DNA of 64,000 nt from an uncultured Planctomycetia bacterium. GTDB taxonomy: Bacteria; Omnitrophota; Gorgyraeia; Gorgyraeales; Gorgyraeaceae. The stretch lies in the NCBI GenBank assembly GCA_964566255.1, contig CAZMID010000002.1:30923-94922 (forward strand). Direction: 5' to 3'. This document shows, piece by piece, positions 26,191 through 61,481 of the stretch (positions within the stretch are counted from its first letter, which is position 1; each line of letters starts with the position of its first letter). A program made the position numbers and the translations under genes. Under the pieces are notes generated by a model. It had not been told where the DNA came from, did no database searches, and saw only the letters and a list, made by a program, of their open reading frames with translations.

Positions 26191-26195
26191 GTTTT

Positions 26196-36145: not shown

Positions 36146-36156
36146 GGGGATTTGAA

Positions 36157-37098: not shown

Positions 37099-37099
37099 C

Positions 37100-37885: not shown

Positions 37886-37898
37886 AAGGTAGATTCTA

Positions 37899-39541: not shown

Positions 39542-39542
39542 A

Positions 39543-41114: not shown

Positions 41115-42566
41115 ATGAAAGATAAAATGATATTGGCAACTGTAAATTCCAAGAAAGAGGTTTATGCTGGCACAGCTAATGAATTTTCAGCTATTGCACC
41201 GAATGTCCAGATGGGACTATTGGGTGCATACATAAAGTCAAAGGATATAGATGTTGAGATAATCGATTCAGAGGTAGAAGGAGTATTGATTAACGGGTTA
41301 CTCGACGTAGTAGAGAGAGAAAAGCCATTGCTTTTAGGTATTGTTTGTACAGGTGCTAATCCATCATCTTCAACAATGATTATGGCAGGGATAGTTGATT
41401 TTTTTCAAGAGTTCAATAAAAGATCTCCTGGGGTAAAGACTTTTATCTGGGGGCCTCACCCTACGGTATTACCTGAAAGGACCTTAAGAGAAACAGATGC
41501 AGATTTTGTTATTAGGGGGGAGGGATATCAGACGATAGTAGAATTATTCAATACACTACGTACCGACCCTAGCAATGTGGACAAAATAGCAGGCCTTTCT
41601 TATTTACGTAATGCTAGATATACCGAGAACAAAGATGTACCATTAATAAAAGATCTAGATATATTACCTATGATCGATTGGGATGCAATGCATCCATCTA
41701 AATATAGAGCCCATAATTGGCATTGCTTTGGAGATGTGAATAACAGGACCCCATATGCGATCGTCTGGACAAGTTTTGGATGTCCATACAAATGCAACTT
41801 TTGCTGTATTAATAATTTATTTGGGAAAAGGACACAGCGTTTTAGAAGCATTGATAGTGTGATTCGCGAAATAAGCATATTAGTAGAAAAACATAACATA
41901 AGACACTTAAAAATATTAGATGAGCTTTTTGTTACCCACCCTAAGAGGATAGAAGAATTCTGCGATAAACTCGAAGAGAAAAATTATGATTTGCATATGT
42001 GGTCTTTTGCAAGGGCGGATACTATAAATAGACATTTGCTTAAAAGGCTAAAGAAGGTAGGGATGGACTGGATATCTTATGGTTTTGAATCTACTAATCC
42101 CAAGATACTAAAAGATATAAGCAAAGGATACAGCTGTAATTTTGATGAGGTAATAAAGATGACGCAGGATGAAGGTATCTATATATGTGCTGATGTTATG
42201 TTTGGCATGTGGGAAGATGATATGGATACGCTGAAATCAACTTACGATTTTTTAGTAAAGCATAATTTTGAATGGGTAAATATGTATCCTGTATTTGCCT
42301 ATCCTGGCACAGAGCTGTATGAAAGGATTGAGGAACCAAAGTCTTGGAAGGTCTATGCGCTTTATGGTTATGAATGTATACCAGCAGGCACAAAATATCT
42401 TAGCCCTAAAGAAGTGCTTAAATTTCGTGATGAGGCATTTGTCAAATATCATAATAGAGAAGAGTATCTTAAGATGATGGAAAATAAATTTGGTTCAGAA
42501 ACCAAAGAACATATAGTCAGAATGTTAAAGATATCACTTAGAAGAAGATTGCTAGAAGAAAAATAA
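41115..42566 (+). CDS. B12-binding-domain radical SAM enzyme (paralog of the ORFs at 55563 and 56914)
   Basis: …IWGPHPT…, KYRAHNWHCFG and TSFGCPYKCNFCCI. It shares a long collinear motif block with the two downstream paralogs. Confidence 0.75.
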   Translation: MKDKMILATVNSKKEVYAGTANEFSAIAPNVQMGLLGAYIKSKDIDVEIIDSEVEGVLINGLLDVVEREKPLLLGIVCTGANPSSSTMIMAGIVDFFQEFNKRSPGVKTFIWGPHPTVLPERTLRETDADFVIRGEGYQTIVELFNTLRTDPSNVDKIAGLSYLRNARYTENKDVPLIKDLDILPMIDWDAMHPSKYRAHNWHCFGDVNNRTPYAIVWTSFGCPYKCNFCCINNLFGKRTQRFRSIDSVIREISILVEKHNIRHLKILDELFVTHPKRIEEFCDKLEEKNYDLHMWSFARADTINRHLLKRLKKVGMDWISYGFESTNPKILKDISKGYSCNFDEVIKMTQDEGIYICADVMFGMWEDDMDTLKSTYDFLVKHNFEWVNMYPVFAYPGTELYERIEEPKSWKVYALYGYECIPAGTKYLSPKEVLKFRDEAFVKYHNREEYLKMMENKFGSETKEHIVRMLKISLRRRLLEEK

Positions 42567-42570
42567 AACT

Positions 42571-43506
42571 ATGAAGAAAAAATCAAAAATATTCATTACG
42601 GGACATAATAGTATGCTGGGTTCTGCTCTATTCAATCGGTTAAAAGAAGGAGGATTCAGTAACTTAGTCGCGAAGGATTCATCAGAACTTAATCTTACGA
42701 ATCAGAGGGCCGTTGATTCATTTTTCAAAAAAGAAAAGCCCGAATATTGCTTTTTAGCTCCAATAAAAGAAGGCGGGATACTTTTAAATATGATGCATCC
42801 TGCTGAATTAGTTTATCAGAACATTGCCACACTAAGTAATGTTGTTCATTCTGCATGGGAGGCAGGGGTTAAGAAGCTTTTATTTTTTGCCAGCTCCTGT
42901 GTTTATTCTAAGGACTGCCCTCAACCTATGAAGGAAGAATATTTATTGACAGGTCCATTAGAGCCGACCAATGAGGCGTATGCAATTGCTAAGATTGCAG
43001 GGATTAAAATGTGCCAGGCATACAATGCTCAATTTGGTACACGGTTTCTTTCTGTGATACCTGCTACTGTTTTTGGACCAGAAGATAATTTCGATTTTAA
43101 GACTTCTCATGTGATATCTGCATTGATTAGGAAATTTCACGAGGGCAAGATAAAAAATGAGCCTGTTGTTAATATCTGGGGGACAGGGAAACCTCGCAGG
43201 GAATTTATATATGTGGACGATTTGGTAGATGCAAGTCTGTTCTTTATGCAGGAAGATAATCCTGTAGAACTTATTAATATGGGTAGTGGTATGGATGTAT
43301 CTATACAAGAGCTGGCTGAGTTGATAAAAGGACTTACTGGTTTTAAAGGTAAGATAGAATTTGATACTACTAAACCCGATGGTGTCTTAAGAAAGTTGCT
43401 TGATAGTCATCGTTTAAATTCTTTAGGTTGGAGACCGAAGGTCGGACTTCAAAAAGGATTGAAGAATACTTATCAGTGGTATACAAATAAAAAGGTTAAA
43501 AGGTAA
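42571..43506 (+). CDS. fcl: GDP-L-fucose synthase (GDP-4-keto-6-deoxy-D-mannose 3,5-epimerase/4-reductase)
   Basis: [40 protein letters not shown] and [11 protein letters not shown] match E. coli Fcl motifs ([38 protein letters not shown]). Confidence 0.85.
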   Translation: [311 protein letters not shown]

Positions 43507-43516
43507 AATTCTAAAA

Positions 43517-44530
43517 ATGGTGAAAAAAAATAACCCAATTCAGTTTGATTCAAGTGTGAGCGATATCCAGGCTAAGGTATTGATTGAGCTTTACAGGATA
43601 ATGCTGAGAATAAGAAGACTCCAGCTTAAAATAGAAGATGAATACCCGAAGGACGAGATGAAAACTCCTGTACATCTCTGTTTGGGACAAGAGGCAATAC
43701 CTGCAGGTATTTGTATTAATTTGAATAAAGAAGATTATGTTTTTAGTAACTACCGAGGCCATGGTCATTATCTTGCTAAGGGTGGTGATTTAAAGGCGCT
43801 TATTTCAGAGTTATATTGCAGGGAAACTGGTTGTTCTCATGGGCGTGGCGGTTCAATGCATTTGATAGATACCTCTGTAGGATTATTAGGTTCTTCTTCT
43901 ATTGTGGCTGGCGGTATACCTATTGCTACAGGATGTGGTCTTGCATCTTTATTGCAGAAAGATAATCGTATAGCAGTTGTATTCTTTGGAGATGGGGCAG
44001 TAGATGAAGGCGTATTATATGAGAGTATCAATTTTGCAGTGCTTAAGAAGCTCCCTGTCATATATGCCTGTGAAAATAATTTTTATGCAGTGTGTTCCCC
44101 ACAAAGACATAGGCAGCCCCTTGATAATATATATAGACGTTTTGAAGGATGCGGTATAAATAGTTATAAGGTTGATGGCAACAATGTTATTGATGTCTAT
44201 CGCATAGCAAATAAAGTCATTAGTGATGCCCGTAACAAAAAAGGCCCTTCATTGATAGAGTTTAGGACATATCGTTGGAGGGGGCATTCTGGAGGCGAAT
44301 CCGATATAGATTTAGGCTATAGATCTCAGGAAGAATTAGATGAATGGATGAAAAAGTGCCCTGTTAAAAATTTTGAGAGTTTCTTACTTAATAATCATTT
44401 AATTACGAATGAGGAGATTAAATCTATAGAGGGTGTTTTTGATAAGGAGATAGATGAGGCTTTTTTGTTTGCTAAAAATAGTCCTTTGGCAGATGAAAAA
44501 GATTTATTGAAATATCTTTATAGTACTTAA
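43517..44530 (+). CDS. Thiamine-diphosphate-dependent dehydrogenase E1 component, alpha subunit
   Basis: …VHLCLGQEA…, TPP-binding GDGA…NN (FFGDGAVDEGVLYESINFA…ACENNFYA), 337 aa. Confidence 0.8.
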   Translation: MVKKNNPIQFDSSVSDIQAKVLIELYRIMLRIRRLQLKIEDEYPKDEMKTPVHLCLGQEAIPAGICINLNKEDYVFSNYRGHGHYLAKGGDLKALISELYCRETGCSHGRGGSMHLIDTSVGLLGSSSIVAGGIPIATGCGLASLLQKDNRIAVVFFGDGAVDEGVLYESINFAVLKKLPVIYACENNFYAVCSPQRHRQPLDNIYRRFEGCGINSYKVDGNNVIDVYRIANKVISDARNKKGPSLIEFRTYRWRGHSGGESDIDLGYRSQEELDEWMKKCPVKNFESFLLNNHLITNEEIKSIEGVFDKEIDEAFLFAKNSPLADEKDLLKYLYST

Positions 44531-44549
44531 TAAGGATTGGAGTGAGGTT

Positions 44550-45605
44550 ATGAAAATCAGCTTTGATTGGGACAAGAAGAGTATAGAAAAAGAAGAACGG
44601 GGATTTGAACACAAATTAGGGGAGAAAGAAAGAAAGATTTCTTATGGCAATGCTTTATACGAAACATTTGATCAGTTGCTTTCGACGGACAAGCGTGTTT
44701 TTGTTATGGGGCAGGGAGTGGATGATCCTTTTGGCATGTTTGGTGCGACACTGGATCTCCATAAGAAATATGGATCGGATAGGGTATTTGATACTCCATT
44801 ATCCGAGGAGGGTTTAACAGGGATAGCAGTAGGTGCAGCCCTTGCAGGTATGCGACCAGTTTATATGCATAACCGTCCCGACTTTCTTTTGCTTGCAATG
44901 AATCAAATTGTTAATCATGCATCAAAATGGAGTTATATGTTTGGAGGTAAAATAAATGTGCCAATTGTTATATGGGCCTGCATAGGTCGTGGCTGGGGTT
45001 CAGGTGCTCAACATTCTCAGGCCTTACAGGGTTTGTTTATGCATATTCCTGGCATAAAACTTGTTATGCCGAGCACCCCTTATGACGCCAAAGGCCTATT
45101 AACTTCAAGTGTTCTTGATAATAATCCTGTGGTAATTTTGGAACATCGCTGGCTATTTAAGCATACAGGACATGTCCCTGAAAAGTTATATACCATACCT
45201 TTTGGTAAGGGCATAATTAGAAAAAAAGGAGATAAAGTTACTATTGTTGGTGCCTCTTATATGGTTATAGAAGCAGTAAGGGCAGCAGAGGAGCTTCAGG
45301 AAAAAGGTATTGATGTAGAGGTTATAGACCTTCGGACATTAAAACCTTTAGATGAAGAGATAATTTTAAATTCAGTCAAAAAAACTGGCAGATTACTTAT
45401 CGTGGATATGGGCTGGAAGACAAGCGGCATAAGTGCGGAAATTGCAGCAATGCTGTCAGAAAAAGGATTTCAATATCTAAAGAAACCAATTAAGCGGGTT
45501 ACTTGTCCAGATATACCAACGCCCGCGGGTTATACATTAGAGAAAAAGTTTTATCCTGGGCCTGCTGAAATAGTAGAGGCTGTAATGGAGTTAATGAAGC
45601 GATGA
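44550..45605 (+). CDS. 2-oxoacid dehydrogenase E1 component, beta subunit (transketolase-like pyrimidine-binding and C-terminal domains)
   Basis: …GQGVDDPFGMFGATLDLHKKYG…RVFDTPLSEEG… is typical of E1β. 351 aa. Adjacent to E1α. Confidence 0.8.
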   Translation: MKISFDWDKKSIEKEERGFEHKLGEKERKISYGNALYETFDQLLSTDKRVFVMGQGVDDPFGMFGATLDLHKKYGSDRVFDTPLSEEGLTGIAVGAALAGMRPVYMHNRPDFLLLAMNQIVNHASKWSYMFGGKINVPIVIWACIGRGWGSGAQHSQALQGLFMHIPGIKLVMPSTPYDAKGLLTSSVLDNNPVVILEHRWLFKHTGHVPEKLYTIPFGKGIIRKKGDKVTIVGASYMVIEAVRAAEELQEKGIDVEVIDLRTLKPLDEEIILNSVKKTGRLLIVDMGWKTSGISAEIAAMLSEKGFQYLKKPIKRVTCPDIPTPAGYTLEKKFYPGPAEIVEAVMELMKR

Positions 45606-46828
45606 ACGAGAGGCAAGATAAAATGACTAAGAAATTAAAAGTTCCTTTTGGGGCACTTACTATAACTGATACTTCCAAGAGACTTATTAAAGAAATACTT
45701 GATTCTAATAGGGTTTCAAGTGGCAAGTATGTAAGGGAATTAGAGAAGCGTTTTGCTGAGTTGACAGGAACCAAAGAGGCAGTTGCAGTTAGTTCTGGAA
45801 CAGATGCTGATGCCTTGGCCTTGGCAGTGCTTTATGATGTTGGCGCAAAAAGAGGTGATGAGGTTATTGTGCCAGCCTTGTCTTTTGTGGCAACTGGAAA
45901 TGCAGTCTTACAGGCAGGTTTTAAGCCTGTTTTTGTAGATATTGAGAAAGAAACGTTGAATATAGATCCGTCGAAGATCGAAAATGTCGTAACAAAAAAG
46001 ACAAAGGCCATAATACCGGTTCATCTTATGGGCAAACCTGCTGATATGGACGCGATAAATGGGATAGCAAAACAGCATAATCTATATGTCATTGAAGATG
46101 CTGCTGAGGCCCATGGGACAGTTTATAAAGGCAGGAATGTTGGGACCTTAGGTGATATGGCTGCATATAGTCTGTACGTAGCTCATATGATATCAACCAT
46201 TGAAGGTGGAATAGTTACAACCAATAATTCAGAATTTACAGAGATTTTGAGATCTCTGAGGTCGCATGGCAGGGCATGTAAATGCAAAGAATGTGTTTTA
46301 AACGTTGGCTTCGGTGTTTGCAATAAGAGATTTACCAAAGGTATGGATGTAAGGTTTATATTTGAACGCATAGGTTTTTCAACTAAGATGAACGAATTAG
46401 AAGCAGCCATTGGATTGGGAAGCATAGAGATCTATTCGCAAATTTTGAAGAAAAGACGCGAAAATCTTTTATACCTTATGGATAAATTTAGCGAATTCGA
46501 AGAGTACCTTTATACTGTTAAAGAAGGGCCTGATGAAGAAATCGGCCCCCACGCCTTTCCTATAATACTTAGAGAGGATGTCAAGTTTAACCGTGATAAA
46601 CTCAGCCGTTTTTTGGAAGAACACTGGATTGATTCACGCAGCCTTTTCTTATCAATGCCTACTCAATGTCCTGGTTTTAAGTATCTAGGACATCGCTTAG
46701 GTGAATTTCCTAATGCTGAGTATATGGGTGAAATGGGGCTACATATAGGTATCCATCAAGATGTGGGCAAAGAGGAAATGGATTATGTCATTAGCGTTAT
46801 AAGAGATTTTTGTAGAAACATCGGTTGA
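45602..46828 (+). CDS. DegT/DnrJ/EryC1/StrS-family PLP-dependent sugar aminotransferase (with a Cys-rich insertion)
   Basis: …SGKYVRELEKRFAELTG…, AYSLYVAHMISTIEGG and LRSHG match the fold. A roughly 12-aa insertion carries four Cys (RACKCKECVLNVGFGVC) before the conserved …GFSTKMNELEAA segment. Confidence 0.8.
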   Translation: MNERQDKMTKKLKVPFGALTITDTSKRLIKEILDSNRVSSGKYVRELEKRFAELTGTKEAVAVSSGTDADALALAVLYDVGAKRGDEVIVPALSFVATGNAVLQAGFKPVFVDIEKETLNIDPSKIENVVTKKTKAIIPVHLMGKPADMDAINGIAKQHNLYVIEDAAEAHGTVYKGRNVGTLGDMAAYSLYVAHMISTIEGGIVTTNNSEFTEILRSLRSHGRACKCKECVLNVGFGVCNKRFTKGMDVRFIFERIGFSTKMNELEAAIGLGSIEIYSQILKKRRENLLYLMDKFSEFEEYLYTVKEGPDEEIGPHAFPIILREDVKFNRDKLSRFLEEHWIDSRSLFLSMPTQCPGFKYLGHRLGEFPNAEYMGEMGLHIGIHQDVGKEEMDYVISVIRDFCRNIG

Positions 46829-48300: not shown

Positions 48301-48303
48301 TTA

Positions 48304-50139
48304 ATGGCAGATTCTGAGAAGATTTTCAAGGAATTGAAAGAAAAATTATTTCCTAAAGGCTGTAAGAGGATACTTTTTGTTGTTCCTCCAGAGTCTCCTG
48401 AAGCCCAGTTTGATATAGATCTTGTGCTTCGAAAACGTTACCCGTGTTTTCCTCCTTATGGCTCTGGTATGCTTAGTCGACAGTTGAAGGATCGTGGTTA
48501 TGAGACAAATATCATTGATTTGAATTTTCTTATGCTTCAGGCAGTTCATAAGGATTCAGCAAACTTTAATTATCAGATTTGGCAGCAACAGTTAACCCAG
48601 GAGATTAATAGGTTTCGTCCAGACTTTATTGGTCTAAGTGTGATGTTTTCGTTTGCTCATGACTCAATGATTAAGGTATGTAAATATATCAAAAAAAGAC
48701 ATTCGGGAATTCCTATAATAGTTGGTGGAATTTACGTCTCTAACGATATCGAGCGTATCCTACGAGAATGTCAGGAAATTGATTTTGGAATGTCTTTTGA
48801 GGCAGATGTTAGCTTCCCCGATCTTATTGATGCCATTAATGAGAAGCTCCCAGTTGACAAAATTGCTCAATTGAGTGTTCTTCGTAACGGTGAATGTATT
48901 ACATGGAAGAATCGTACAGTACCCGATATCAACAGTCTAAATGTACAGCCGGACTATTTAGATCTGCCTATAGGTGAATATTCAAGATACGGAGCTCTTG
49001 GCAACTATAATTTTCTACTAGATGATAAGAAGGCCACTTCAGTGCAAGGTAATCGGGGGTGTCATGCTCGGTGCAGTTTTTGCTCTGCAAAAGAGTATCA
49101 TGGGGGTGGTGTAAGAAGTCGCAATGTTACTGCGGTTGTAGATGAGATTCAGTTTTTATATGAAACTTATGGGATTAGTCATTTCACATGGCTTGATGAT
49201 GATTTGCTCTTTAATGAGAAACGTGTCATAACGTTATTCACTGAGATTATAAAGCGCAATATTAAAATTACCTGGGATGCATCAAATGGGCTTATTGCCT
49301 CAGCCATTACACCTGAGATTATGACACTGGCTTATGAGTCTGGATGCATTGGGGTACATCTTGGGATTGAGTCAGGGAATGAGCAGATTCTTAGGTCTAT
49401 TCGTAAACCCAGCGGGAGGAGACATTTCTATCGCGCCAAAGAACAACTAGATAGGTACCCGCAGATCTTTGTAAAAGGGTATCTCATTATTGGTTTTCCA
49501 AATGAGACATTAGGTCAGATAATGGATACAGTTAAAATGGCATGTGAACTGGAGTTTCATTGGTATCCTTTACAATTCCTTTCTTTGTTACCCCGCACTG
49601 ATATTACAATGAACGCTGTTAAGCAGGGTTTGATTGGGAAAGATGATGTTTCATCTCAGTATCATGGTGAGACAGCTGGTTCAAAGAGTGCTAGTGGCGG
49701 CTCCCTGCGGCAGAGAGAGATTGAAGAAAAACTAGAGGCAAAAGAGTTTAAAAATATATTTGAAGAAAAAAGTATGGACTATGTACCTACGCTAGAGGAG
49801 TTGCGTGATATATGGTTTGTAGCTGATTATAAGATTAATTATGAAAAATTGTTGCACGTGAATGATCCAATCAAACTTAGCAACATTAGAAAGATGCTTA
49901 TGGAGATCGCGGATAAATATACATTTGAAAACAGTCTGGGTAATTTGTTCATGGCAGTTTTAGAACAAAAACTTGGTCAAAAAGAAGAAGGCATGCGCAG
50001 ACTCCTTCTCGCAGAACAATATCTCAGTGAATCTAAGTATTGGCAGAAAAGATATGAAGTATTAGGAATATATAACGTTGTTGATGCAGTAAAGAGAGGT
50101 TGTTTTTTAGCAAAATATGATAAAAGTTGCATTCGTTGA
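48304..50139 (+). CDS. B12-binding-domain radical SAM enzyme with about 150-aa C-terminal helical extension
   Basis: …PIIVGGIYVS…, then GNRGCHARCSFCSA. The C-terminal region is helical and TPR-like (…LGQKEEGMRRLLLAEQYLSESKYWQKRYEVLGIY…). Confidence 0.72.
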   Translation: MADSEKIFKELKEKLFPKGCKRILFVVPPESPEAQFDIDLVLRKRYPCFPPYGSGMLSRQLKDRGYETNIIDLNFLMLQAVHKDSANFNYQIWQQQLTQEINRFRPDFIGLSVMFSFAHDSMIKVCKYIKKRHSGIPIIVGGIYVSNDIERILRECQEIDFGMSFEADVSFPDLIDAINEKLPVDKIAQLSVLRNGECITWKNRTVPDINSLNVQPDYLDLPIGEYSRYGALGNYNFLLDDKKATSVQGNRGCHARCSFCSAKEYHGGGVRSRNVTAVVDEIQFLYETYGISHFTWLDDDLLFNEKRVITLFTEIIKRNIKITWDASNGLIASAITPEIMTLAYESGCIGVHLGIESGNEQILRSIRKPSGRRHFYRAKEQLDRYPQIFVKGYLIIGFPNETLGQIMDTVKMACELEFHWYPLQFLSLLPRTDITMNAVKQGLIGKDDVSSQYHGETAGSKSASGGSLRQREIEEKLEAKEFKNIFEEKSMDYVPTLEELRDIWFVADYKINYEKLLHVNDPIKLSNIRKMLMEIADKYTFENSLGNLFMAVLEQKLGQKEEGMRRLLLAEQYLSESKYWQKRYEVLGIYNVVDAVKRGCFLAKYDKSCIR

Positions 50140-51553
50140 TCTAATTAAAGAACTTCATGACCGGCATGGCATTTATTCACTGTCAAGTGCCATGAAGCAA
50201 CATGGTGTTGAGGTTTATTTTGTCGGGGAAAGAACTTATAAAAGGGCACTACGCAGAGTAAAAGAAATCAGACCAGATTTTTTACTCTATTCTTCTTTTT
50301 CCTCAACTATGTCAGTTTATACTGAGTTTGACAAAATGTCCAAAGAGTTTGTTAAGGCAAGATCCCTAATAGGAGGGCCTGGGCCGACATTTGATTGGAA
50401 GAGCATAGAGAATTCTTCTATTGATAGTGCATGTGTTGGTGAAGGAGAATTTGCATTAGTGGATTTTATTAAGAGTAACTTTCATACTACAAAAAATATA
50501 TTTAGAAGAGAAGAGCTTGCACCTTCTGGATTTTATCCTCTTGTAGAGTTGGATAGATTACCTTTTCCTGACAGGGATGTGGTTTATAGAGAAGATTCTA
50601 TACTTAGAAATCAACCATCTAAACAGTTTCTTTCTGGTAGAGGATGTCCTTATCAGTGTACATATTGTTTTAATCATAAGTTTAGAGATATTTTTAAAGG
50701 TCTTGGTCCATCTGTAAGAAAGAAGAGTCTTGGATATTTATTTGATGAGATACGCTATGTAAAGAAAAGATATCCGCTTTCAAGTATTGTATTTAACGAT
50801 GATACTTTCATTTTAGATAGAAAGTGGTTTGTAGAGTTTTGCGAGCGGTTTCCAAAAGAAATTGGTCTGACGTACACTTGTAATATAAGGCCTAATTTGA
50901 TTGACGAAGAAGTAGTCAGGTTATTAAAAGACAGTAATTGCACAGGTGTAAACTGGAGCATAGAGTCAGGAGATGATTACTTAAGAAATGAGGTACTTAA
51001 AAGAAATATAACTATTGAGCAGATATTGAATACATCGGAACTTTTAAGAAAGTATAAGATTTCGTATAGAATTGGAAATATTATTGGTTTGCCTGGAGAA
51101 AATTTTGAACAAATGCTTAAAACATTAAAGTTAAATATAAAGGCCAGACCTTCTATGGCATTTAGTGGCATTTTTGTCCCTTTTCCTGGTTTGGCTTTAA
51201 CAGAATATGCGATTTCCCACGGTTATTATAAGCCAGACACAAAGCGAGGTTTACCAGATGGCCGTACAAGATGCCTCATGAATGTAAGTCAAAATGAGAA
51301 TCTAAAGATTCAAAAACTATTCTGTTTATTTCCATTATTTGTGAAATATCCAGTTTTATTTGATAGAGATGCCTTGCGGAAAACGTTGTTTTCTATACCT
51401 TTATGTATATTAAAAATATTATTTACGTTTTATTATGGCTTTCACATGATGAAACTTCATATTCCAAAGGTATCTTTCTTCCAGAAATGTCAAATAGCCA
51501 TGAGATTTATTATAAATTTATATATATCGAATAAAAGGTATAGAAGGAAATAA
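50117..51553 (+). CDS. B12-binding-domain radical SAM enzyme
   Basis: N-terminal B12-binding-like fold (…LIGGPGPTF…VGEGE…), then SGRGCPYQCTYCFN. Confidence 0.72.
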   Translation: MIKVAFVDLIKELHDRHGIYSLSSAMKQHGVEVYFVGERTYKRALRRVKEIRPDFLLYSSFSSTMSVYTEFDKMSKEFVKARSLIGGPGPTFDWKSIENSSIDSACVGEGEFALVDFIKSNFHTTKNIFRREELAPSGFYPLVELDRLPFPDRDVVYREDSILRNQPSKQFLSGRGCPYQCTYCFNHKFRDIFKGLGPSVRKKSLGYLFDEIRYVKKRYPLSSIVFNDDTFILDRKWFVEFCERFPKEIGLTYTCNIRPNLIDEEVVRLLKDSNCTGVNWSIESGDDYLRNEVLKRNITIEQILNTSELLRKYKISYRIGNIIGLPGENFEQMLKTLKLNIKARPSMAFSGIFVPFPGLALTEYAISHGYYKPDTKRGLPDGRTRCLMNVSQNENLKIQKLFCLFPLFVKYPVLFDRDALRKTLFSIPLCILKILFTFYYGFHMMKLHIPKVSFFQKCQIAMRFIINLYISNKRYRRK

Positions 51554-51567
51554 AAAAGGGGATTATC

Positions 51568-52752
51568 ATGAAAAGACTATCGAAGATTACAGATGGATTG
51601 ATTGGCCAACCTATGTTTAAACTTCTTGTAAAAGTAAAGGAGATGGAAGAAAGAGGCGCTAGGATCTTTCATTTTGAAATAGGGGATTCGGATTTTAGGG
51701 CGCATCAACATATTGTAGAAGCAACCAAAAAGGCGCTCGATAATGATAAAACTCATTATGTTTCATCAATAGGTATATCAGAATTAAGAGAGGCTATTTG
51801 CGATTCTACAGAAGAGACATTGGGTTTTAGACCAGATCTAGACCAGGTGGTTGTTATGCCGGCCAATGGTATTATTGATTTTGTAATGCGCTGTGTTGCT
51901 GAACCAGGTGACGAGGTTCTGTATCCTGACCCAGGGTTTTCTACATATCTAGCTGTAACTAATTATACAGGCATTAAAAAGGTCGGGATCCCTGTAAGGG
52001 AAGAAAATAGATTCCACATGGAACCAGAAGAAATAAGAAGACGGATAACTGATAAAACGCGACTTCTAATTATTAACTCTCCACAAAACCCAACAGGTGC
52101 TGTGATGAGCAAAAAAGATGTAGAAGAAATCGCCTTAATAGCCCAAGAGAATGATATCTATATTTTGAGTGATGAGATATATTCAAAGGTTATTTATGGG
52201 AAGACACATTATTCACCCAGTTTTCTAGATAGATGTTTAGACAGGACTATTATTTTAAATGGGTTTGCAAAAAATTATTCAATGCCTGGATGGAGATTAG
52301 GTTATGCGATAGGTCCAAAAGAGGTTATCAAAAAGATGGGCATCCTTTTTCAGACAATTTATTCTTGCACACCTCCTTTTATTCAATATGGAGGGATTGC
52401 AGCACTAAGAGGAGATCAGAGAGCTATCGGAGAAAGGATACAGAAATATAAAGCACTAAGAGATCTAATTGTTAAGGGGTTAAATGAGATTCCTGGGGTA
52501 TCTTGCATGGTTCCAGAGGGTGCTTGTTATGTTTTTCCGAATATAAAAGGGACTGGGATGGACAGTGTTCAGTTTGCTGATTTTGTACTGGAGAAGGCAG
52601 GAGTAGCCCTTTTACCTGGAACGTGTTTTGGTGAGTATGGTGAGGGACATGTAAGACTTTGTTACACGAGACATCCAGAAGTTATTAAAGAGGCATGCGA
52701 AAAAATGAAAAAGGCATTCATGGAGAAGAAAAATGAAGTCTGTATTCATTAA
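51568..52752 (+). CDS. Class I/II PLP-dependent aminotransferase (aspartate aminotransferase-like fold type I)
   Basis: Length and motifs (…IINSPQNPTGAV…, …NGFAKNYSMPGWRLGYAIG…) match the pattern with the conserved PLP-binding Lys. The C-terminal HVRL is present. Confidence 0.8.
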   Translation: MKRLSKITDGLIGQPMFKLLVKVKEMEERGARIFHFEIGDSDFRAHQHIVEATKKALDNDKTHYVSSIGISELREAICDSTEETLGFRPDLDQVVVMPANGIIDFVMRCVAEPGDEVLYPDPGFSTYLAVTNYTGIKKVGIPVREENRFHMEPEEIRRRITDKTRLLIINSPQNPTGAVMSKKDVEEIALIAQENDIYILSDEIYSKVIYGKTHYSPSFLDRCLDRTIILNGFAKNYSMPGWRLGYAIGPKEVIKKMGILFQTIYSCTPPFIQYGGIAALRGDQRAIGERIQKYKALRDLIVKGLNEIPGVSCMVPEGACYVFPNIKGTGMDSVQFADFVLEKAGVALLPGTCFGEYGEGHVRLCYTRHPEVIKEACEKMKKAFMEKKNEVCIH

Positions 52753-53887
52753 TGATATTACATTGAGAGATGGGGAACAGGCTGCAGGAGTTAATTTTTT
52801 CCCTGAGGAAAAATTAAAGATTGCCGAAAGCTTGGTTAAATTGGGCGTCCCTATAATTGAAGCTGGGTTTCCAATAGCTTCAGACCAGGACGCTAAAGGC
52901 GTGGAGCTGGTTGCTAAAGAATTCGGAAAAGATATTATCATTAGCGCTATGTGTAGAGCTGTATTTAAAGATATAGAAGTAGCGAGTAAATCATTAGGAG
53001 ATGCCCCTAAAAGAAGGATACAGGTTGTTATGGGTACCTCCGACATACATTTAAAGCATAAGTTTAACATATCAAGAGAAAAGGCCTTAGATATCTCAGT
53101 AGAGTCGGTTAGATATGCTTGTAAGTTTTCTAACGATATAGAGTTTGCGGCCGAAGATTCTACAAGAAGCGATCTAAGCTATCTTATAGAGGTGTGCAAG
53201 GCTTGTGTTGCAGCAGGTGCAAAGACAATAGAACTTCCTGATACTGTTGGATATGCTACACCAGAAGAATATTTCAATATGGTAGCTTCAGTTGTAAAAT
53301 CCCTTCCTTCAGAAGTGATTGTTTCTACGCACTGTCATAATGATCTTGGTATGGCAACAGCAAATACACTCGCAGGCATTCAGGCAGGTGCCAAGCAGGC
53401 AGAAGTTACCATAAATGGAATTGGAGAAAGAGTTGGGAATGCATCTTCAGAAGAGGTCATTATGGCTTTAAGGGCGAGGAGAGATTTTTATAAGATCGAT
53501 GTAGACTATGTCAATGCCAAAGAGATTATGAAGTTGAGTAAGTTGATTGAGGAACTTTCCCAGATAAAGATCGCTCATAATAAGGCTGTTGTTGGAAAAG
53601 GGGCATTTTTACATGAATCAGGCATACATCAAGATGGGCTTATAAAGTCACCTCAGACGTATCAACTTTTAAACCCAGGAGACATTGGTCTAGAGGGGTA
53701 TGAGTTAGTTATAGGAAAACTCTCAGGGAAGAATGCCTTAAAAGAGAGGATGAATATTATTGGGATTGGGTTAGGCGATAAAGATATGGCAGATTTTTCT
53801 AGGTTTTTTAAAGATCATGTTGCAAAAAAGAAATTTATTACAGATGATGATATATCAAATCTATACAAGAGATGGAAAAACAGCTAG
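52733..53887 (+). CDS. HMGL-like DRE-TIM metallolyase (2-isopropylmalate/homocitrate/citramalate synthase family) lacking a LeuA regulatory domain
   Basis: INDITLRDGEQAAGVNF… matches the (L)RDGEQ motif, and …HCHNDLGMATANTLAGIQAGA… matches HxH. It is 384 aa, catalytic TIM barrel plus a short subdomain. Confidence 0.75.
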   Translation: MKSVFINDITLRDGEQAAGVNFFPEEKLKIAESLVKLGVPIIEAGFPIASDQDAKGVELVAKEFGKDIIISAMCRAVFKDIEVASKSLGDAPKRRIQVVMGTSDIHLKHKFNISREKALDISVESVRYACKFSNDIEFAAEDSTRSDLSYLIEVCKACVAAGAKTIELPDTVGYATPEEYFNMVASVVKSLPSEVIVSTHCHNDLGMATANTLAGIQAGAKQAEVTINGIGERVGNASSEEVIMALRARRDFYKIDVDYVNAKEIMKLSKLIEELSQIKIAHNKAVVGKGAFLHESGIHQDGLIKSPQTYQLLNPGDIGLEGYELVIGKLSGKNALKERMNIIGIGLGDKDMADFSRFFKDHVAKKKFITDDDISNLYKRWKNS

Positions 53888-54693
53888 TAGAAATATTTAA
53901 AAAAATGTGTTTGATCCGCTATTTTGAGCTCCAGGTTATTGAGCCCAGAAAGAATGGTCTTACGCCTGGCCCTGTTTATTTGTCAGTAGGACAGGAGGCT
54001 ATTTCTAGCGCAATTTCAATGCTTACAAAAGGATATTCAGTTTTTGCACAGCATCGCTGTCACTCAGTGTATTTAGCATATGGTGGAGATCCTGGACGTC
54101 TTGTAGACGAGTTGTTTGGTCGAAGTTCAGGGTGTTGTGGGGGTAAGGGTGGCTCACCGTGCATACAAGATTTAAATATTCCTATGTATGGGCATCATGG
54201 GTTAATAGGAGAGAATATACCTTTGGCGACTGGTTATGCATTGGCTACGGGAAAACCTACAGTTGCCTATTTTGGCGATGCAGCATCTGAAGAAGATTAT
54301 GCATTGACTTCATTTGGTTTTGCTACAACTCATAAATTACCTATTTTATATGTTTGCGAAGATAACGATTTATCCATTTTAACTCCTATTAAGGACAGAA
54401 GAGATTGGAATGTTCATGATGTGACCACAGCTATGGGATTAAAGACCGAAGTGATTGTAGATGATCCTAAAGTAATCCTGGATACTGTTGGGGGGCTGAT
54501 TGAAAAGCTTCCTGCATTTGTCAATATTCAGACCACCAGGCACCTTTGGCATGAAGGGGGAGGGATCGATGGTCCTCCTGTGAGAGATAGAATAGCTGAG
54601 ATGAGAAAAATAATACCCGATGCATCAAAAATAGAAGATGAAATAAAAACATATGTTGAGGAACTATGGCAAAGACAGTCGCAGAAACTATAA
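53872..54693 (+). CDS. Thiamine-diphosphate-dependent E1 alpha-like subunit (short form)
   Basis: …CLIRYFELQV…PVYLSVGQEAI… matches the E1α N-terminal motif. TPP-binding is YFGDAASEEDYALTSFGFA…CEDND. It is 273 aa. Confidence 0.68.
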   Translation: MEKQLVEIFKKMCLIRYFELQVIEPRKNGLTPGPVYLSVGQEAISSAISMLTKGYSVFAQHRCHSVYLAYGGDPGRLVDELFGRSSGCCGGKGGSPCIQDLNIPMYGHHGLIGENIPLATGYALATGKPTVAYFGDAASEEDYALTSFGFATTHKLPILYVCEDNDLSILTPIKDRRDWNVHDVTTAMGLKTEVIVDDPKVILDTVGGLIEKLPAFVNIQTTRHLWHEGGGIDGPPVRDRIAEMRKIIPDASKIEDEIKTYVEELWQRQSQKL

Positions 54694-55553
54694 AAGAAGT
54701 TACTCGCAGGCATTTAGAGGAAAACAAAGGTTTATTGTTCGGGCAGTCCATAACAGCTGTTGGATGGGTAAATAATACAGTGCCTGACTGTAGAAATATT
54801 GTTGAATTTCCTATGTCTGATGTGTCCAATATGGGGATAGCTTGTGGTGCAGCAATTAGTGGGCGGCGACCTATTATTGTTATTCGTTTTCAGGATTTTA
54901 TGTGGCTCAATAGCAGTACCTTGGTAAATTATGCTGCCAAGTCCAAGGATATTATGGGCATACCGACGCCAATATTTGTAAGGGCTTTGGCCTTGGATAA
55001 TGCAGGCTGTGTCCATTCAGGTGTCCTCCACGGTATATTTATGCATATGCCGGGTTTCAGGGTTTGTTCTCCTATGACACCAAAAGAATATGAGGAAGCC
55101 TGGGATGATTTTATGGCTCATGACGATCCAATGATTGTTAGCGAACATAGAAAGAGTTTCAATAATACTGAGGAGTTTGCAAATACAAACAATAAAGCAG
55201 ATGTAACATTGATTTCGATATCATCGGCACGTTTTAATGTGATTAAGGCTGCATCTATACTTGAGAAAGAAGGAATTAGATGTAATCTTGCTCATGTTAT
55301 GTGGCTTAAACCTTTCAAAAAGGATCATATCTTGGAGGCGTTGAACAATAGCAAAAGAGGTTTGGTAATAGATGCTGGTTTTGAAATATGCGGGGCTTCT
55401 CAATCTATAGCTTATGAACTTATGTTGGAGACTGGTAAGCCTGTGAAGGCTTTAGGATTAGAAGATCGTTCAGTAGGTGTGGGTCTTGAATCCCGAAACC
55501 CAACACCATCTGCTGAAAGAATAGTTGCAGGAGTCAAAGATTTTTTACAATAG
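54666..55553 (+). CDS. E1 beta-like / transketolase pyrimidine-binding subunit (short form)
   Basis: Its position after the E1α-like gene, the fold-compatible pattern (…GIACGAAISGRRPII…) and 295 aa support the call. The assignment is weaker than for the pair at 43517 and 44550. Confidence 0.6.
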   Translation: MAKTVAETIKEVTRRHLEENKGLLFGQSITAVGWVNNTVPDCRNIVEFPMSDVSNMGIACGAAISGRRPIIVIRFQDFMWLNSSTLVNYAAKSKDIMGIPTPIFVRALALDNAGCVHSGVLHGIFMHMPGFRVCSPMTPKEYEEAWDDFMAHDDPMIVSEHRKSFNNTEEFANTNNKADVTLISISSARFNVIKAASILEKEGIRCNLAHVMWLKPFKKDHILEALNNSKRGLVIDAGFEICGASQSIAYELMLETGKPVKALGLEDRSVGVGLESRNPTPSAERIVAGVKDFLQ

Positions 55554-55562
55554 AGGTAACTC

Positions 55563-56930
55563 GTGTTAGATATTTTATTAGTAAATCCTAGTAATCGACT
55601 TTCTCAATTTGGTGGGGTTTCCAAATATGCTACTATCGCTCAGCCATTAGGAATAACTATGCTTGCTGCTTACATAAGAAAGCATAGCTTTTCTGTTGAG
55701 ATCCTTGATGCAGAGGTTTTAGATCTTATCCCTGAGAGGGTTATAGACGAGATCGTGCGCCGCAACCCAAGATTTGTAGGTATCACTGCTTTTACGACAA
55801 AGATGACAGCAGCTAATAGAATATTTACTCTTTTAAAAGAAAAGGCACCTTATATAAAAACTATTATTGGAGGACATCATCCCTCTGCAATACCTGAAGA
55901 GACATTAAAAGAGTCAAATGTCGATTTTGTTGTTAAAGGTGAAGGGTACAAATCTATAGTAGATATACTTAGTGGGAGGAAAGACCCAATTCAAACAGCA
56001 GAACTGATGAAGGATATAAATGAACTTCCTCTTCCTGCGTGGGATTTGTTGCCTATGGATAAATATAGAGCTCATCACTGGCATACATGGGGTATTGGTC
56101 AGGCGAATTCATGTGCCTTGATCTATACATCTCTCGGATGCCCTTTTCAATGTAAATTCTGCAGTGTTTCTGTAGTCTATGGCAAGAGGATTTATAGAAA
56201 AAAGAGCCCTGAGCGCGTAATCCAGGATTTTGACGTGCTTTATAATAAGTATCACATTAAGCATATTGAGATTATAGACGATACATTTACCTTGGATAGG
56301 ACTCATGTAGAAAAGATATGTGACCTTTTGATTGAACGGAAGTACAATTTTAATATGTGGGCATTTTCAAGGACAGACACCACAGATCCTTATCTTATGG
56401 AGAAGATGAAAAAGGCAGGTATTAATTGGGTTTTTATGGGGATAGAAGCTGGTAATAGTAAAGTTTTGGATTCTGTGCTCAAAAAACAAAATTTGGAACA
56501 GATCCGTAATGCTATTGATATTGCGCATAAAGCTGGAATGAATGTCGGCACAAATTACATATTTGGCCTTCCTGATGACAGCTTTGAGACTATGCAGGAT
56601 ACACTTGATTTAGCATTGGAGCTTAATACAGAATGGAGTAATTTTTTTATAGCCATGCCTTATCCAGGGACAGAGATGTATGGTAAATCCAGAGCTGAAG
56701 ATTTACCTCAAGAATGGGAACAATATGGCTTCTTTGCACCGAATGCAAGGACATTACCTACGAGATATGTAAGTGGTGAGGATGTGGTGAGATTTAGAGA
56801 TAAGGCATTCCAGACTTTTTTTTCAAATCGGAATTATCAGGATATGATAGAAAAAAAGTTTGGCATGAAAAAATATATACAAGATATGCTGAAAAAGAAA
56901 ATCGGAAGGGATTATGAAACAAAGAGATAA
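55563..56930 (+). CDS. B12-binding-domain radical SAM enzyme (paralog of the ORFs at 41115 and 56914)
   Basis: GTG start. …IIGGHHPS…, KYRAHHWHTWG, TSLGCPFQCKFCSV. Confidence 0.74.
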   Translation: MLDILLVNPSNRLSQFGGVSKYATIAQPLGITMLAAYIRKHSFSVEILDAEVLDLIPERVIDEIVRRNPRFVGITAFTTKMTAANRIFTLLKEKAPYIKTIIGGHHPSAIPEETLKESNVDFVVKGEGYKSIVDILSGRKDPIQTAELMKDINELPLPAWDLLPMDKYRAHHWHTWGIGQANSCALIYTSLGCPFQCKFCSVSVVYGKRIYRKKSPERVIQDFDVLYNKYHIKHIEIIDDTFTLDRTHVEKICDLLIERKYNFNMWAFSRTDTTDPYLMEKMKKAGINWVFMGIEAGNSKVLDSVLKKQNLEQIRNAIDIAHKAGMNVGTNYIFGLPDDSFETMQDTLDLALELNTEWSNFFIAMPYPGTEMYGKSRAEDLPQEWEQYGFFAPNARTLPTRYVSGEDVVRFRDKAFQTFFSNRNYQDMIEKKFGMKKYIQDMLKKKIGRDYETKR

Positions 56931-58362
56931 TTTACTGATATTAAAGCCAGGCGCACAAGAGGAACTCTATCAAAAATTGAGTGAATCTTTATCAGGACTT
57001 GAGCCATCGTTATGGTCAGCATTGCTTGCTGCGTTCATAAGGGAGAAAGGCTTCAAGGTTAATATAGTAGATGCCGAAGTAGAATATGAAAGGTTGATAC
57101 CTGTTGTAACAGCCGAAATGCCAAAATTGGTTGCTATTGTAGCCTCTGGAACAAATCCTTCAGCATCTACAATGAATATGGTAGGCGTAAGAAATTTAGT
57201 CCAGGATATAAAAAGAGTGAATAAGGATTTACCTATTATATTAATAGGTCTTCATCCATCAGCATTACCCAGGCAGACTTTATTAGAAGAACCTGTGGAC
57301 ATGGTATGTGAGGGAGAGGGATTTTATACGTTATTGGATTTACTTTCAGATGTTGATTATAAAGATATTAAGGGTTTATGGTATAGAAAAGGAAAAGAGA
57401 TTCTTTCTAATCCTAGAGCTGAATTGGTTGACCCCAATGAACTACCTATGCCGGCATGGGAACTGATGTCTATGCATAAATATAGAGCTCATAATTGGCA
57501 TTGTTTTGGTCATACAGACGAAAGAAGTCCTTACGGAGTTATCTATACAAGCCTGGGTTGTCCTTTCAATTGTTCGTTCTGTTGCATAAATGCTATTTTT
57601 GGAGTACACAAAATACGATATAGAAACCCTAAGAAGGTCGTAGAGGAAATAGATTATCTTGTGAAGAACTATAATATTAAAAATTTTAAGATTATTGATG
57701 AAATGTTTGATTTAAATGATAACCATGTGATTGAGCTTTGCGATCTTCTTATAGAGAGGGACTATGGTTTAAACATATGGGCTTATACTAGAGTCGATAC
57801 AATGAATGAGAAGAAATTGAAAAGAATGAAACAGGCTGGGATAAATTGGCTGGGCATAGGTTTTGAGTCTGGTAATAGAGGAATTCGAGATACCGCTACT
57901 AAGGGTAGATTTGATAATGAGAAAATGAGACAGGCTGTAAAGATGATAAGAGATGCAGATATATATCTGGGTGGGAATTTTATCTTTGGCCTTCCCGGTG
58001 ATTCCCTTGAAACCATGCAGCAGACCTTAGATTTAGCAAAGGAATTTAATTGTGAATATGCAAATTTCTATGTTGCTATGGCTTATCCCGGATCCAAACT
58101 TTATGAAGAAGCCGTGGCTAAAAATCTTCCTTTGCCTGATTCATGGCTTGGTTATTCACAGTTTAGTTACGAGACACAACCTTTACCGACAGAATCTCTA
58201 TCTCCTTCTGAAATCCTGCGTTTCAGGGATAAGGCCTTTAATGAATTCTATAGCAGCAAATCCTATCAGGATATGATTTTGAAGAAATTTGGAGAAGAGA
58301 CACTTCAGCATGTAAAAGATATGCTTAAACATAGATTAAAAAGGCAATTATTGAGTGATTAG
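56914..58362 (+). CDS. B12-binding-domain radical SAM enzyme (paralog of the ORFs at 41115 and 55563)
   Basis: …LIGLHPS…, KYRAHNWHCFG, TSLGCPFNCSFCCI. It overlaps the upstream paralog by 17 nt. Confidence 0.75.
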   Translation: MKQRDNLLILKPGAQEELYQKLSESLSGLEPSLWSALLAAFIREKGFKVNIVDAEVEYERLIPVVTAEMPKLVAIVASGTNPSASTMNMVGVRNLVQDIKRVNKDLPIILIGLHPSALPRQTLLEEPVDMVCEGEGFYTLLDLLSDVDYKDIKGLWYRKGKEILSNPRAELVDPNELPMPAWELMSMHKYRAHNWHCFGHTDERSPYGVIYTSLGCPFNCSFCCINAIFGVHKIRYRNPKKVVEEIDYLVKNYNIKNFKIIDEMFDLNDNHVIELCDLLIERDYGLNIWAYTRVDTMNEKKLKRMKQAGINWLGIGFESGNRGIRDTATKGRFDNEKMRQAVKMIRDADIYLGGNFIFGLPGDSLETMQQTLDLAKEFNCEYANFYVAMAYPGSKLYEEAVAKNLPLPDSWLGYSQFSYETQPLPTESLSPSEILRFRDKAFNEFYSSKSYQDMILKKFGEETLQHVKDMLKHRLKRQLLSD

Positions 58363-59100: not shown

Positions 59101-59135
59101 GGTTGACATATATAGGCATGAGGAGGCAATAAGAG

Positions 59136-61454: not shown

Positions 61455-61481
61455 GAATAAGATTAGAATATAAAGGAGGGT

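Follow-up and report, generated by a model that had tools for sequence, protein, structure and literature searches.

Three open reading frames (ORFs) in the 64,000-nucleotide (nt) stretch analysed here (the window; contig CAZMID010000002.1 of an uncultured Omnitrophota bacterium) belong to a large, uncharacterised and uncurated family of class-B radical S-adenosylmethionine (SAM) enzymes, the YRAH.W(H/Q) family, whose genes lie among conserved GDP-heptose genes in many phyla and on viral contigs. All are on the forward (+) strand, as are the other features below, and are named by their first position: ORF 41115 (41115..42566, 483 amino acids (aa)), ORF 55563 (55563..56930, 455 aa, GTG start) and ORF 56914 (56914..58362, 482 aa). 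Each has a B12-binding and a radical SAM domain, with PF02310 and PF04055 scores of 40.7 and 58.8, 91.5 and 84.4, and 55.1 and 74.4 bits, respectively. Seven B12-binding radical SAM (B12-rSAM) ORFs had been proposed for the window, and all seven pass the Pfam gathering scores of 32.1 bits (PF02310) and 29.5 bits (PF04055). The three ORFs are anciently diverged paralogues from three separate orthologue groups, clades C (41115), B (55563) and A (56914). As such, the triplet is a case of ordinary, ancient paralogy within a glycan locus, and the interest rests with the family and its conserved cassette. We consider it probable that these are cobalamin-type radical SAM enzymes tailoring GDP-heptose intermediates, most likely by C-methylation.

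A radical SAM family with a linker signature

All-versus-all BLASTP aligns the three ORFs over their full lengths, at 38% identity for 41115 and 56914 (E 4e-126), 32% for 41115 and 55563 (E 6e-98) and 39% for 55563 and 56914 (E 8e-123), against 21–31% (E 1e-7 to 1e-40) with the other four B12-rSAMs of the window (33805, 39543, 48304 and 50117). Their mutual similarity is therefore far beyond chance, and the original prediction was right to treat the ORFs at these coordinates as paralogues of one enzyme type. The CxxxCxxC motif is invariant in their alignment (C223/C227/C230 in 41115 numbering), and two C-terminal motifs, DLHMWSFARADT / NFNMWAFSRTDT / GLNIWAYTRVDT and NMYPVFAYPGTELYE / NFFIAMPYPGTEMYG / NFYVAMAYPGSKLYE in the three ORFs, read approximately as had been described.

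The block noted earlier between the two domains was found exactly as given. It reads LPMIDWDAMHPSKYRAHNWHCFGDVNNRTPYAIVWTSFGCPYKCNFC in 41115 (aa 184–230, 41664..41804, with the core KYRAHNWH at nt 41700–41723), LPLPAWDLLPMDKYRAHHWHTWGIGQANSCALIYTSLGCPFQCKFC in 55563 (aa 155–200, 56025..56162, core at nt 56061–56084) and LPMPAWELMSMHKYRAHNWHCFGHTDERSPYGVIYTSLGCPFNCSFC in 56914 (aa 177–223, 57442..57582, core at nt 57478–57501). All three ORFs carry Y-[RK]-A-H-[NH]-W-[HQ] 20–27 residues before GCP..C..C, with TS(L/F) in place of TSR. Per column across the three clades (56914 numbering), H193 and W195 are conserved in 100% of sequences, Y190 in 88–100%, R191 in 85–97% and A192 in 95–99%; position 194 is a conserved N or H, and position 196 is H, but Q in 89% of clade B. 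R204, P206 and Y207 are conserved in clades A and C only, and 55563 lacks both this R.PY part of the block and an NPS(A/S)STM loop.

The 169 loci fetched contain 223 full-length B12-rSAM ORFs, all of which were used to assess the specificity of the block. Scores against the clade hidden Markov models are bimodal, with 115 ORFs at 500 bits or more, 108 below 350 and none between; within the window, the three ORFs score 737–874 bits and the other four B12-rSAMs 84–179. The strict motif Y[RK]AH[NH]W[HQ] is present in 108 of the 115 family ORFs and in none of the 108 other B12-rSAMs. A metagenome scan with the clade C profile, with two true clade C loci among the matches listed, was reused as a background B12-rSAM sample. 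Neither annotated BchE (encoded between ppsR and bchJ) nor annotated HpnJ (next to hpnI) has the RAH.WH core. Profile alignments leave its position empty in MgmA, OxsB and CysS, and in TsrM place an unrelated linker of equal length there. The proposal that the block is family-specific rather than generic thus stands for the core. It fails for the flanks (LP.PAW.LL, KY and GCP..C.FC), as generic B12-rSAMs also have DLD.LP.PA..LL…(K)Y and TSRGCP..C.FC. Nor is the block peculiar to these three genes: in a pattern scan it marks a family of at least 569 loci among GTDB species representatives. The hallmark of this family is an insertion of about ten residues in the linker that leads from the Rossmann domain to β1, (K)YRAH(N/H)W(H/Q)…R.PY..IYTS(L/F)GCP.

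An AlphaFold2 model of 56914, built on a 60-sequence alignment (predicted local distance difference test score 94.3, predicted template modelling (TM) score 0.92), has AprD4, MgmA/QCMT, TsrM, CysS, OxsB and TokK as Foldseek neighbours (TM 0.66–0.74). The predicted fold is class I, an arrangement in which an N-terminal Rossmann domain lies over the radical SAM barrel (PMC12931638). Residues 187–207 of the block are largely irregular in the model, with one short helix (194–197), and the block runs into β1 (207–215) and then the cluster loop (216–223). The block had been suggested as a substrate-binding element; since its core does not vary between clades with different partners, it would more likely contact a shared moiety, such as the cofactor or the GDP handle, than discriminate between substrates. 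Better candidates for specificity would be the clade-specific H/Q196, R204-x-P-Y and the loop missing from 55563.

A check against NCBIfam did not place the block in any curated B12-rSAM subfamily, as no model reaches its cut-off. For 41115, 55563 and 56914, respectively, HpnJ (TIGR03471) scores 147.7, 146.5 and 169.8 bits against a cut-off of 577.6, BchE (TIGR02026) 134.8, 142.6 and 160.0 against 481.35, and AprD4 (NF033070) 49.5, 91.0 and 85.7 against 500; PhpK-family matches reach 83–118 bits against 600, and the ApyD and ladderane-lipid models match weakly. Nine of ten diverse family representatives have no NCBIfam match at E ≤ 1e-40, and the tenth matches HpnJ/BchE far under the cut-offs. 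Among the best 148 representatives at 50% identity, 96 have the motif and most others have variants of it, such as YRTSNWH and YRSHLWH; most 50%-identity representatives fall outside clades A–C.

Family members are labelled 'anaerobic Mg-protoporphyrin IX monomethyl ester cyclase' (BchE) or 'YgiQ' by JGI. The window contains no bch genes or other tetrapyrrole context, which makes the BchE label a mis-annotation for this family, and no hopanoid genes (hpnI, hpnK or shc) are among its annotated ORFs. Viral 'bchE' auxiliary genes are discussed in a 2026 virome paper (PMC13452462), and some such calls may really be members of the YRAH.WH sugar-cassette family. Separately, many top family representatives are 640–2331 aa long or were matched in two stretches several hundred residues apart (P0363, P0365, P0376–P0379, P0384–P0386, P0463 and P0496), which suggests fusions or large insertions, perhaps inteins, inside some members.

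Three ancient orthologue groups

The triplet had been read as the product of recent duplication and divergence. That one enzyme was duplicated recently in this lineage, in tandem or dispersed, and is now diverging might be suspected from three ORFs that are mutually best matches within the window, from the adjacency and overlap of two of them, and from a 33-nt stretch that is 94% identical between 41115 and 56914. We find this extremely improbable on the evidence of the wider family. For each ORF, 120 relatives were retrieved, every one closer to its query than the paralogues are to each other: orthologue identities are 54–78% for 56914, 45–83% for 55563 and 49–74% for 41115, far above the 32–39% between paralogues. 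The three homologue lists have no sequence in common, and a neighbour-joining tree of 361 sequences resolves three clean clades, each with only its own ORF's matches (119 sequences in A, 118 in B and 117 in C). Every ORF therefore has at least 117 closer relatives in a separate clade that reaches into other phyla, the source labels including Omnitrophota, Planctomycetota, Elusimicrobia, Deltaproteobacteria, Chloroflexi, KSB1, Pacearchaeota and Magnetofaba.

The DNA gives no more sign of a recent event, as only patches of 33–116 nt can be aligned among the three genes. The best of them, the 33-nt patch, is exactly the codons of the invariant KYRAHNWHCF in an AT-biased genome; gene conversion was considered as its source and is unnecessary, the patch being precisely these invariant codons.

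The tandem order of 55563 and 56914 had also been taken as a sign of recent duplication, but B→A tandems with overlapping frames are kept in distant genomes, on a Planctomycetota chromosome (L007) and on a second Omnitrophota contig (L177), the latter with identities of 59% and 58% and an overlap of 13 nt. The two genes are a conserved pair and no fresh duplicate. Their 17-nt overlap is confirmed (56914..56930), with a Shine-Dalgarno-like GGAAGGGA before the ATG of 56914; as overlaps occur at 22 of the window's 53 gene junctions and measure at least 10 nt at 10 of these, it reflects ordinary operon packing and bears no evidence on duplication. Clades A and B are apparently together on several other contigs as well. 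Two family members occur in only 2 of 79 genome loci, a count from loci examined with 10-kb flanks, when in the window the clade C gene lies 13 kb from the clade B gene.

A conserved, probable GDP-heptose cassette

The 80 genome loci surveyed for gene context, each with ±10 kb, were ranked by how similar they are to 56914; many contigs are truncated and the counts are lower bounds. In these loci, clade A is the canonical member of a GDP-heptose cassette, with a GHMP kinase in 58 of the 80, a two-subunit thiamine diphosphate (ThDP) enzyme (E1α/β-like or split transketolase) in 54, a DegT-family enzyme in 53, a short-chain dehydrogenase/reductase (SDR) like ORF 25258 of the window in 51, an Fcl-like SDR in 46 and a nucleotidyltransferase in 38. 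An SDR directly adjoins the clade A gene in 23 loci, and a small family 2 glycosyltransferase (GT2) and a PMT_2/GT-C membrane protein usually come after. This co-location spans Planctomycetota, Nitrospira, Dehalococcoidia, DPANN archaea, alphaproteobacteria and viral contigs.

The kinase is nearest to heptose kinases (PDB 3k85 and 4n3o) and NCBIfam HddA, and the transferase is nearest to HddC. The SDR of the window (25258–26190) matches PDB 6VO6/6VO8, which its depositors name only 'putative sugar-nucleotide epimerase/dehydratase' (6VO6), over its full length at about 60% identity (E 1e-120), the next solved SDR following at E 2.5e-23. In 49 of 58 DegT-type cassette ORFs, His occupies the position of the Schiff-base Lys. 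Genes for SIS (GmhA-like) and HAD (GmhB-like) proteins occur in several loci (L169–L172). Taken together, the heptose-kinase, HddC, 6VO6-like and His-type dehydratase matches mark the cassette as a predicted route from GDP-heptose through a 4-keto to a 3-deoxy sugar, joined by ThDP and radical SAM enzymes. A phosphonate or methylerythritol phosphate-like pathway, which would also combine a ThDP enzyme, a kinase and a nucleotidyltransferase, was rejected on the heptose-kinase, 6VO6-like and Fcl-like matches, and the Pfam annotation of the window has no phosphoenolpyruvate mutase.

Parts of this gene set have known counterparts. ThDP enzymes that branch 4-keto sugars stand next to a 3-dehydratase and a reductase in the yersiniose (YerE) and eurekanate (AviB1/AviB2, an E1α/β-like pair) pathways, much as the E1α/β-like or split-transketolase pair does in the cassette; those pathways work on CDP or dTDP hexoses and are not known to include a B12-rSAM. 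The cassette kinase, transferase, SDR, Fcl-like reductase and His-type dehydratase parallel HddA, HddC, Cj1427, Cj1428 and the HS:5 C3-dehydratase in the GDP-heptose modification pathway of Campylobacter jejuni, in which the role of Cj1427 has been described (PMC10680097). Unlike that pathway, the cassette adds radical SAM and ThDP enzymes; the C. jejuni paper has no occurrence of a radical SAM enzyme, the only one of the two that was searched for there (PMC10680097).

The cassette is widely transferred. A complete set lies on plasmid pDMC1 of Solidesulfovibrio magneticus RS-1 (L176, NC_012797.1, 22.5–35.4 kb), in the order GT2, GT2, radical SAM, NUDIX, kinase, E1α, E1β, Fcl-like, DegT, SDR, nucleotidyltransferase and GT-C, and plasmid AZO_p6 of Azospirillum lipoferum 4B (L173) also carries the cassette. 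Both plasmids have NUDIX and Fcl-like genes, and the NUDIX genes, which lie beside the family member, are presumably Gmm-like. These cultured carriers are practical experimental systems.

About 40 predicted viral contigs of IMG/VR (L179–L222, up to 318 kb; for example L180, L185, L194, L203, L212 and L213) contain a family member with 35–49% identity to 56914, often together with 25258-like SDR, E1α/β, GHMP kinase, DegT-type, Gmd and Fcl-like genes. From these gene sets, viruses appear to carry the sugar cassette. A further contig (L178, ENA ERZ27297438 k141_3008313, 99.6 kb) has a phage-like stretch at 1–21374, with homing-endonuclease genes of the HNH_3 and NUMOD3 types and numerous tiny ORFs on the same strand, which holds two family members, a GHMP kinase, a DegT gene, an epimerase and a B12-rSAM split into B12-binding (222 aa) and Radical_SAM (283 aa) ORFs.

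Proposed reaction and alternatives

In the route that we propose, the HddA-like kinase and HddC-like transferase would make GDP-D-glycero-manno-heptose, which the 6VO6 homologue would oxidise at C4. The His-type pyridoxamine phosphate (PMP) dehydratase would then take off the 3-OH, the two-subunit ThDP enzyme would add or rearrange carbon and the Fcl-like SDR would reduce the product, before the small GT2 and the GT-C-type membrane transferase hand the sugar to a surface acceptor. The radical SAM enzymes would act on a GDP-heptose intermediate, a 5'-deoxyadenosyl radical abstracting hydrogen from an unactivated carbon and a methyl group of methylcobalamin then passing onto the radical carbon. 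The mechanistic model is provided by GenK, GenD1 and Fom3, class-B radical SAM C-methylases of sugars or of nucleotide-linked substrates that use a 5'-deoxyadenosyl radical and methylcobalamin on an unactivated sp3 carbon, although no close sequence relationship to them was seen; the substrate of Fom3 is cytidylylated. The three family members, in three sub-modules, would probably act on different intermediates or positions, and since the three clades have different conserved neighbours, the earlier suggestion of successive positions or substrates is plausible.

Cobalamin use by the family is predicted. The sole hint lies two residues past the final cluster Cys, at the position aligned with E236 of TsrM, where clades A and C have Ile and clade B has Val. 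That glutamate is placed between cobalamin and the cluster, and radical methylases have a hydrophobic residue there (PMC12931638).

Several points weigh against C-methylation of GDP-heptose by these enzymes. Cobalamin binding is unreadable from sequence, and AprD4, the closest solved structure, has a Rossmann-like domain, binds no cobalamin and is a dehydratase (PMC12931638). The closest curated families, HpnJ and BchE, are non-methylases. A full-text literature search found no paper on the YRAH.WH family or its cassette, and no biochemistry of any member. PDB 6VO6 we take to be C. jejuni Cj1427, a GDP-D-glycero-manno-heptose C4-dehydrogenase recycled by 2-oxoglutarate, although its depositors give it a less specific name. 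Finally, the canonical partners of clade A lie 10–30 kb off in the window, which makes the assignment of each paralogue to a step guesswork.

The likeness to AprD4 raises the alternative that these are cobalamin-independent dehydratases of a vicinal diol of GDP-heptose, the ketone so formed then being reduced by the neighbouring SDR in the manner of AprD3 with AprD4. AprD4 (PDB 6FD2), the radical SAM 1,2-diol dehydratase of apramycin, has a partner reductase and an aminosugar substrate, and it is the nearest solved structure by both sequence (E 8e-20) and fold (Foldseek E 4e-27, TM 0.73); an SDR immediately beside the clade A gene in 23 loci would fit such a pairing. We nevertheless think the alternative unlikely. 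The sequence match is confined to the radical SAM half, at about 20% identity and with the block unaligned, the NCBIfam AprD4 scores (49–91 bits against 500) lie below those of HpnJ and BchE, and the N-terminal domains of the three ORFs pass the PF02310 gathering score. The adjacent SDR, moreover, is the 6VO6 homologue, of the presumed C4-dehydrogenase type and no ketoreductase partner, and the cassette already has a PMP-type 3-dehydratase.

A non-methylating reaction like those of HpnJ, OxsB or BchE, be it ring contraction, cyclisation or another C–C rearrangement of the heptose towards, for example, a carbocyclic or bicyclic higher sugar, would accord with the curated families that score highest and with a ThDP enzyme in the cassette that suggests carbon-skeleton building. 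HpnJ acts on a glucosamine moiety. It shares the two-domain architecture with the three ORFs, is the best curated family for 41115 (148 bits) and 56914 (170 bits), and has a similar stretch around the cluster motif (LPF…PY..IYT.(R)GC, with ..PY..IYT.. before the motif in common); BchE, the anaerobic Mg-protoporphyrin monomethyl ester cyclase, has the same architecture and is the second-best match. The scores are, however, three- to fourfold under the family cut-offs, both families lack the RAH.WH core, annotated HpnJ has TGRGC where the three ORFs have TS(L/F)GC, and the tetrapyrrole context of BchE is absent from the window. Most characterised B12-rSAMs are, furthermore, methylases (PMC12931638), and the hydrophobic Ile/Val at the stacking position resembles that of radical methylases, so that we rate a non-methylating reaction as rather improbable. 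That the substrate is no sugar at all, but a peptide, lipid or cofactor with the glycan genes as mere neighbours, seems very improbable. Many B12-rSAMs are enzymes of lipids or of ribosomally synthesized and post-translationally modified peptides, the ApyD and ladderane-lipid models match weakly and the window contains SPASM radical SAMs; against this, the same six sugar genes are co-located in 38–58 of the 80 loci, across diverse phyla and viral contigs, and conserved polyketide, nonribosomal peptide synthetase or lipid-synthesis genes appear neither in the Pfam tables of the neighbour genes nor in a labelling of the 80 loci by window proteins, most loci having been screened without ORFs below 100–120 aa, such as small precursor peptides.

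If C-methylation of GDP-heptose intermediates is taken a step further, the YRAH.WH enzymes could be the first of the cobalamin-dependent radical SAM type to act directly on a nucleotide sugar, making, with the ThDP enzyme, an undescribed C-methylated or branched 3-deoxy-heptose or higher sugar, a possibility that we put forward only tentatively. A 2026 review names no nucleoside diphosphate sugar as substrate for any B12-rSAM (PMC12931638). On this reading, very diverse bacteria and archaea would bear the sugar on their surfaces, viruses would make the same sugar with the cassette that they carry, and Omnitrophota would have expanded the cassette into assembly lines of many enzymes, each locus holding three family members besides four other B12-rSAMs. 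In any case, the triplet leads to a B12-type radical SAM family that is very large, has a sharp signature and lies outside all curated models. A single characterised member would lend a function to thousands of genes, could bring in nucleotide sugars as a new substrate class for B12-rSAMs and would correct auxiliary-gene calls of the 'bchE' type in viromes.

Gene organization of the window

The window has about 36% GC, and its genes form one long array on the + strand. It starts with the end of dnaK and with dnaJ, both housekeeping genes, followed by an LptD-like gene, UDP-sugar dehydrogenases, nucleoside diphosphate sugar epimerases/dehydratases, Wzi and a Wza-like exporter. A surface-glycan super-locus takes up the rest of the window from about 24 kb. 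Besides the seven B12-rSAM ORFs, it encodes two SPASM radical SAMs and a HemN-like protein, three ThDP enzymes of two subunits each, three small GT2s that are paralogues, and several large membrane proteins. Proteins identical to those of the window are also present on metagenome contigs as well as on one NCBI contig of 111 kb, and the closest relatives are labelled Candidatus Omnitrophota.

Here the cassette is split and expanded, with all its genes present though dispersed. SDR 25258, the PMT_2 GT-C protein 26196, the HddA-like GHMP kinase 27950 and the HddC-like nucleotidyltransferase 28951 are placed apart, at 25258..29679. The clade C gene closes a 12-gene module syntenic with Candidatus Saelkia tenebricola, whose conserved part at 33805..41099 includes the non-family B12-rSAMs 33805 and 39543, a split transketolase (35285 and 36157), an SDR, the small GT2 37899 and epimerase 38570. 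Adjoining clade C at 42571..46828 are a GDP-L-fucose-synthase-like SDR (42571; Fcl, 415 bits in NCBIfam), a pyruvate dehydrogenase E1α-like protein (43517; PDH_E1_alpha, 319 bits), an E1β-like protein (44550) and a DegT-family protein (45602; RfbH, 278 bits). In comparisons that included the Lys variant 3bb8 and perosamine synthase, ORF 45602 (45602–46828) is best aligned to the His enzyme CDP-4-keto-6-deoxyglucose 3-dehydrase E1 (3bcx). It has His at the Schiff-base Lys position of aminotransferases (…YSLYVAHMISTIEGG…), and its Cys-rich GRACKCKEC aligns with the GRDCYCAPGCDNTC region of 3bcx. The protein is probably a PMP-dependent 3-dehydratase and no aminotransferase.

Two non-family B12-rSAMs, 48304 and 50117, follow at 48304..51553 and lack the RAH.WH core. 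The next genes, annotated with Pfam and NCBIfam at 51568..55553, encode a class I/II aminotransferase (51568; best NCBIfam match GntC-like/aspartate aminotransferase), an isopropylmalate/homocitrate-synthase-like HMGL protein (52733) and an E1α-like (53872, 273 aa) and E1β-like (54666, 295 aa) pair that look truncated. This sub-module looks like a 2-oxoacid elongation that would feed the ThDP step. Its gene order recurs in L004, L007 and L177; clade B follows it in the window and in L007, and in L004 and L177 a non-family B12-rSAM is at that spot.

Clade A comes after clade B and ahead of the small GT2 58396 and two multi-pass membrane proteins of 772 and 508 aa without Pfam match (58396..63008), which we would assign as a polyprenyl-phosphate-sugar synthase and transferase(s). 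The equivalent position holds PMT_2 / 'phospholipid carrier-dependent glycosyltransferase' genes in L004, L167 and S. magneticus pDMC1. The three small GT2s of the window (24533–25261, 37899–38570 and 58396–59100) are 223–242 aa long and mutually 47–61% identical. Large membrane proteins adjoin the first (26196, PMT_2) and the third (59136 and 61482, without Pfam match), and in Candidatus Saelkia (L167) a 765-aa membrane protein comes after the clade C gene in the module with the second-type GT2, an arrangement that suggests three parallel polyprenyl-phosphate-sugar / GT-C delivery modules.

Two further observations concern radical SAM chemistry elsewhere in the super-locus. The HemN-type protein at 46825–48300 exceeds its curated cut-off (TIGR00538, 332.8 against 324.95 bits) and stands in the middle of the glycan locus, with the dehydratase on one side and two B12-rSAMs on the other; instead of a coproporphyrinogen oxidase, it may be a radical SAM methylase of class C. 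At 30794–32747, a PHP-like protein (weak PHP_C match) and a DUF362 protein fused to a 2x[4Fe-4S] ferredoxin domain are encoded amid radical SAM genes. The Saelkia module keeps the PHP gene without the DUF362 gene, and the DUF362–ferredoxin fusion could be a dedicated electron donor.

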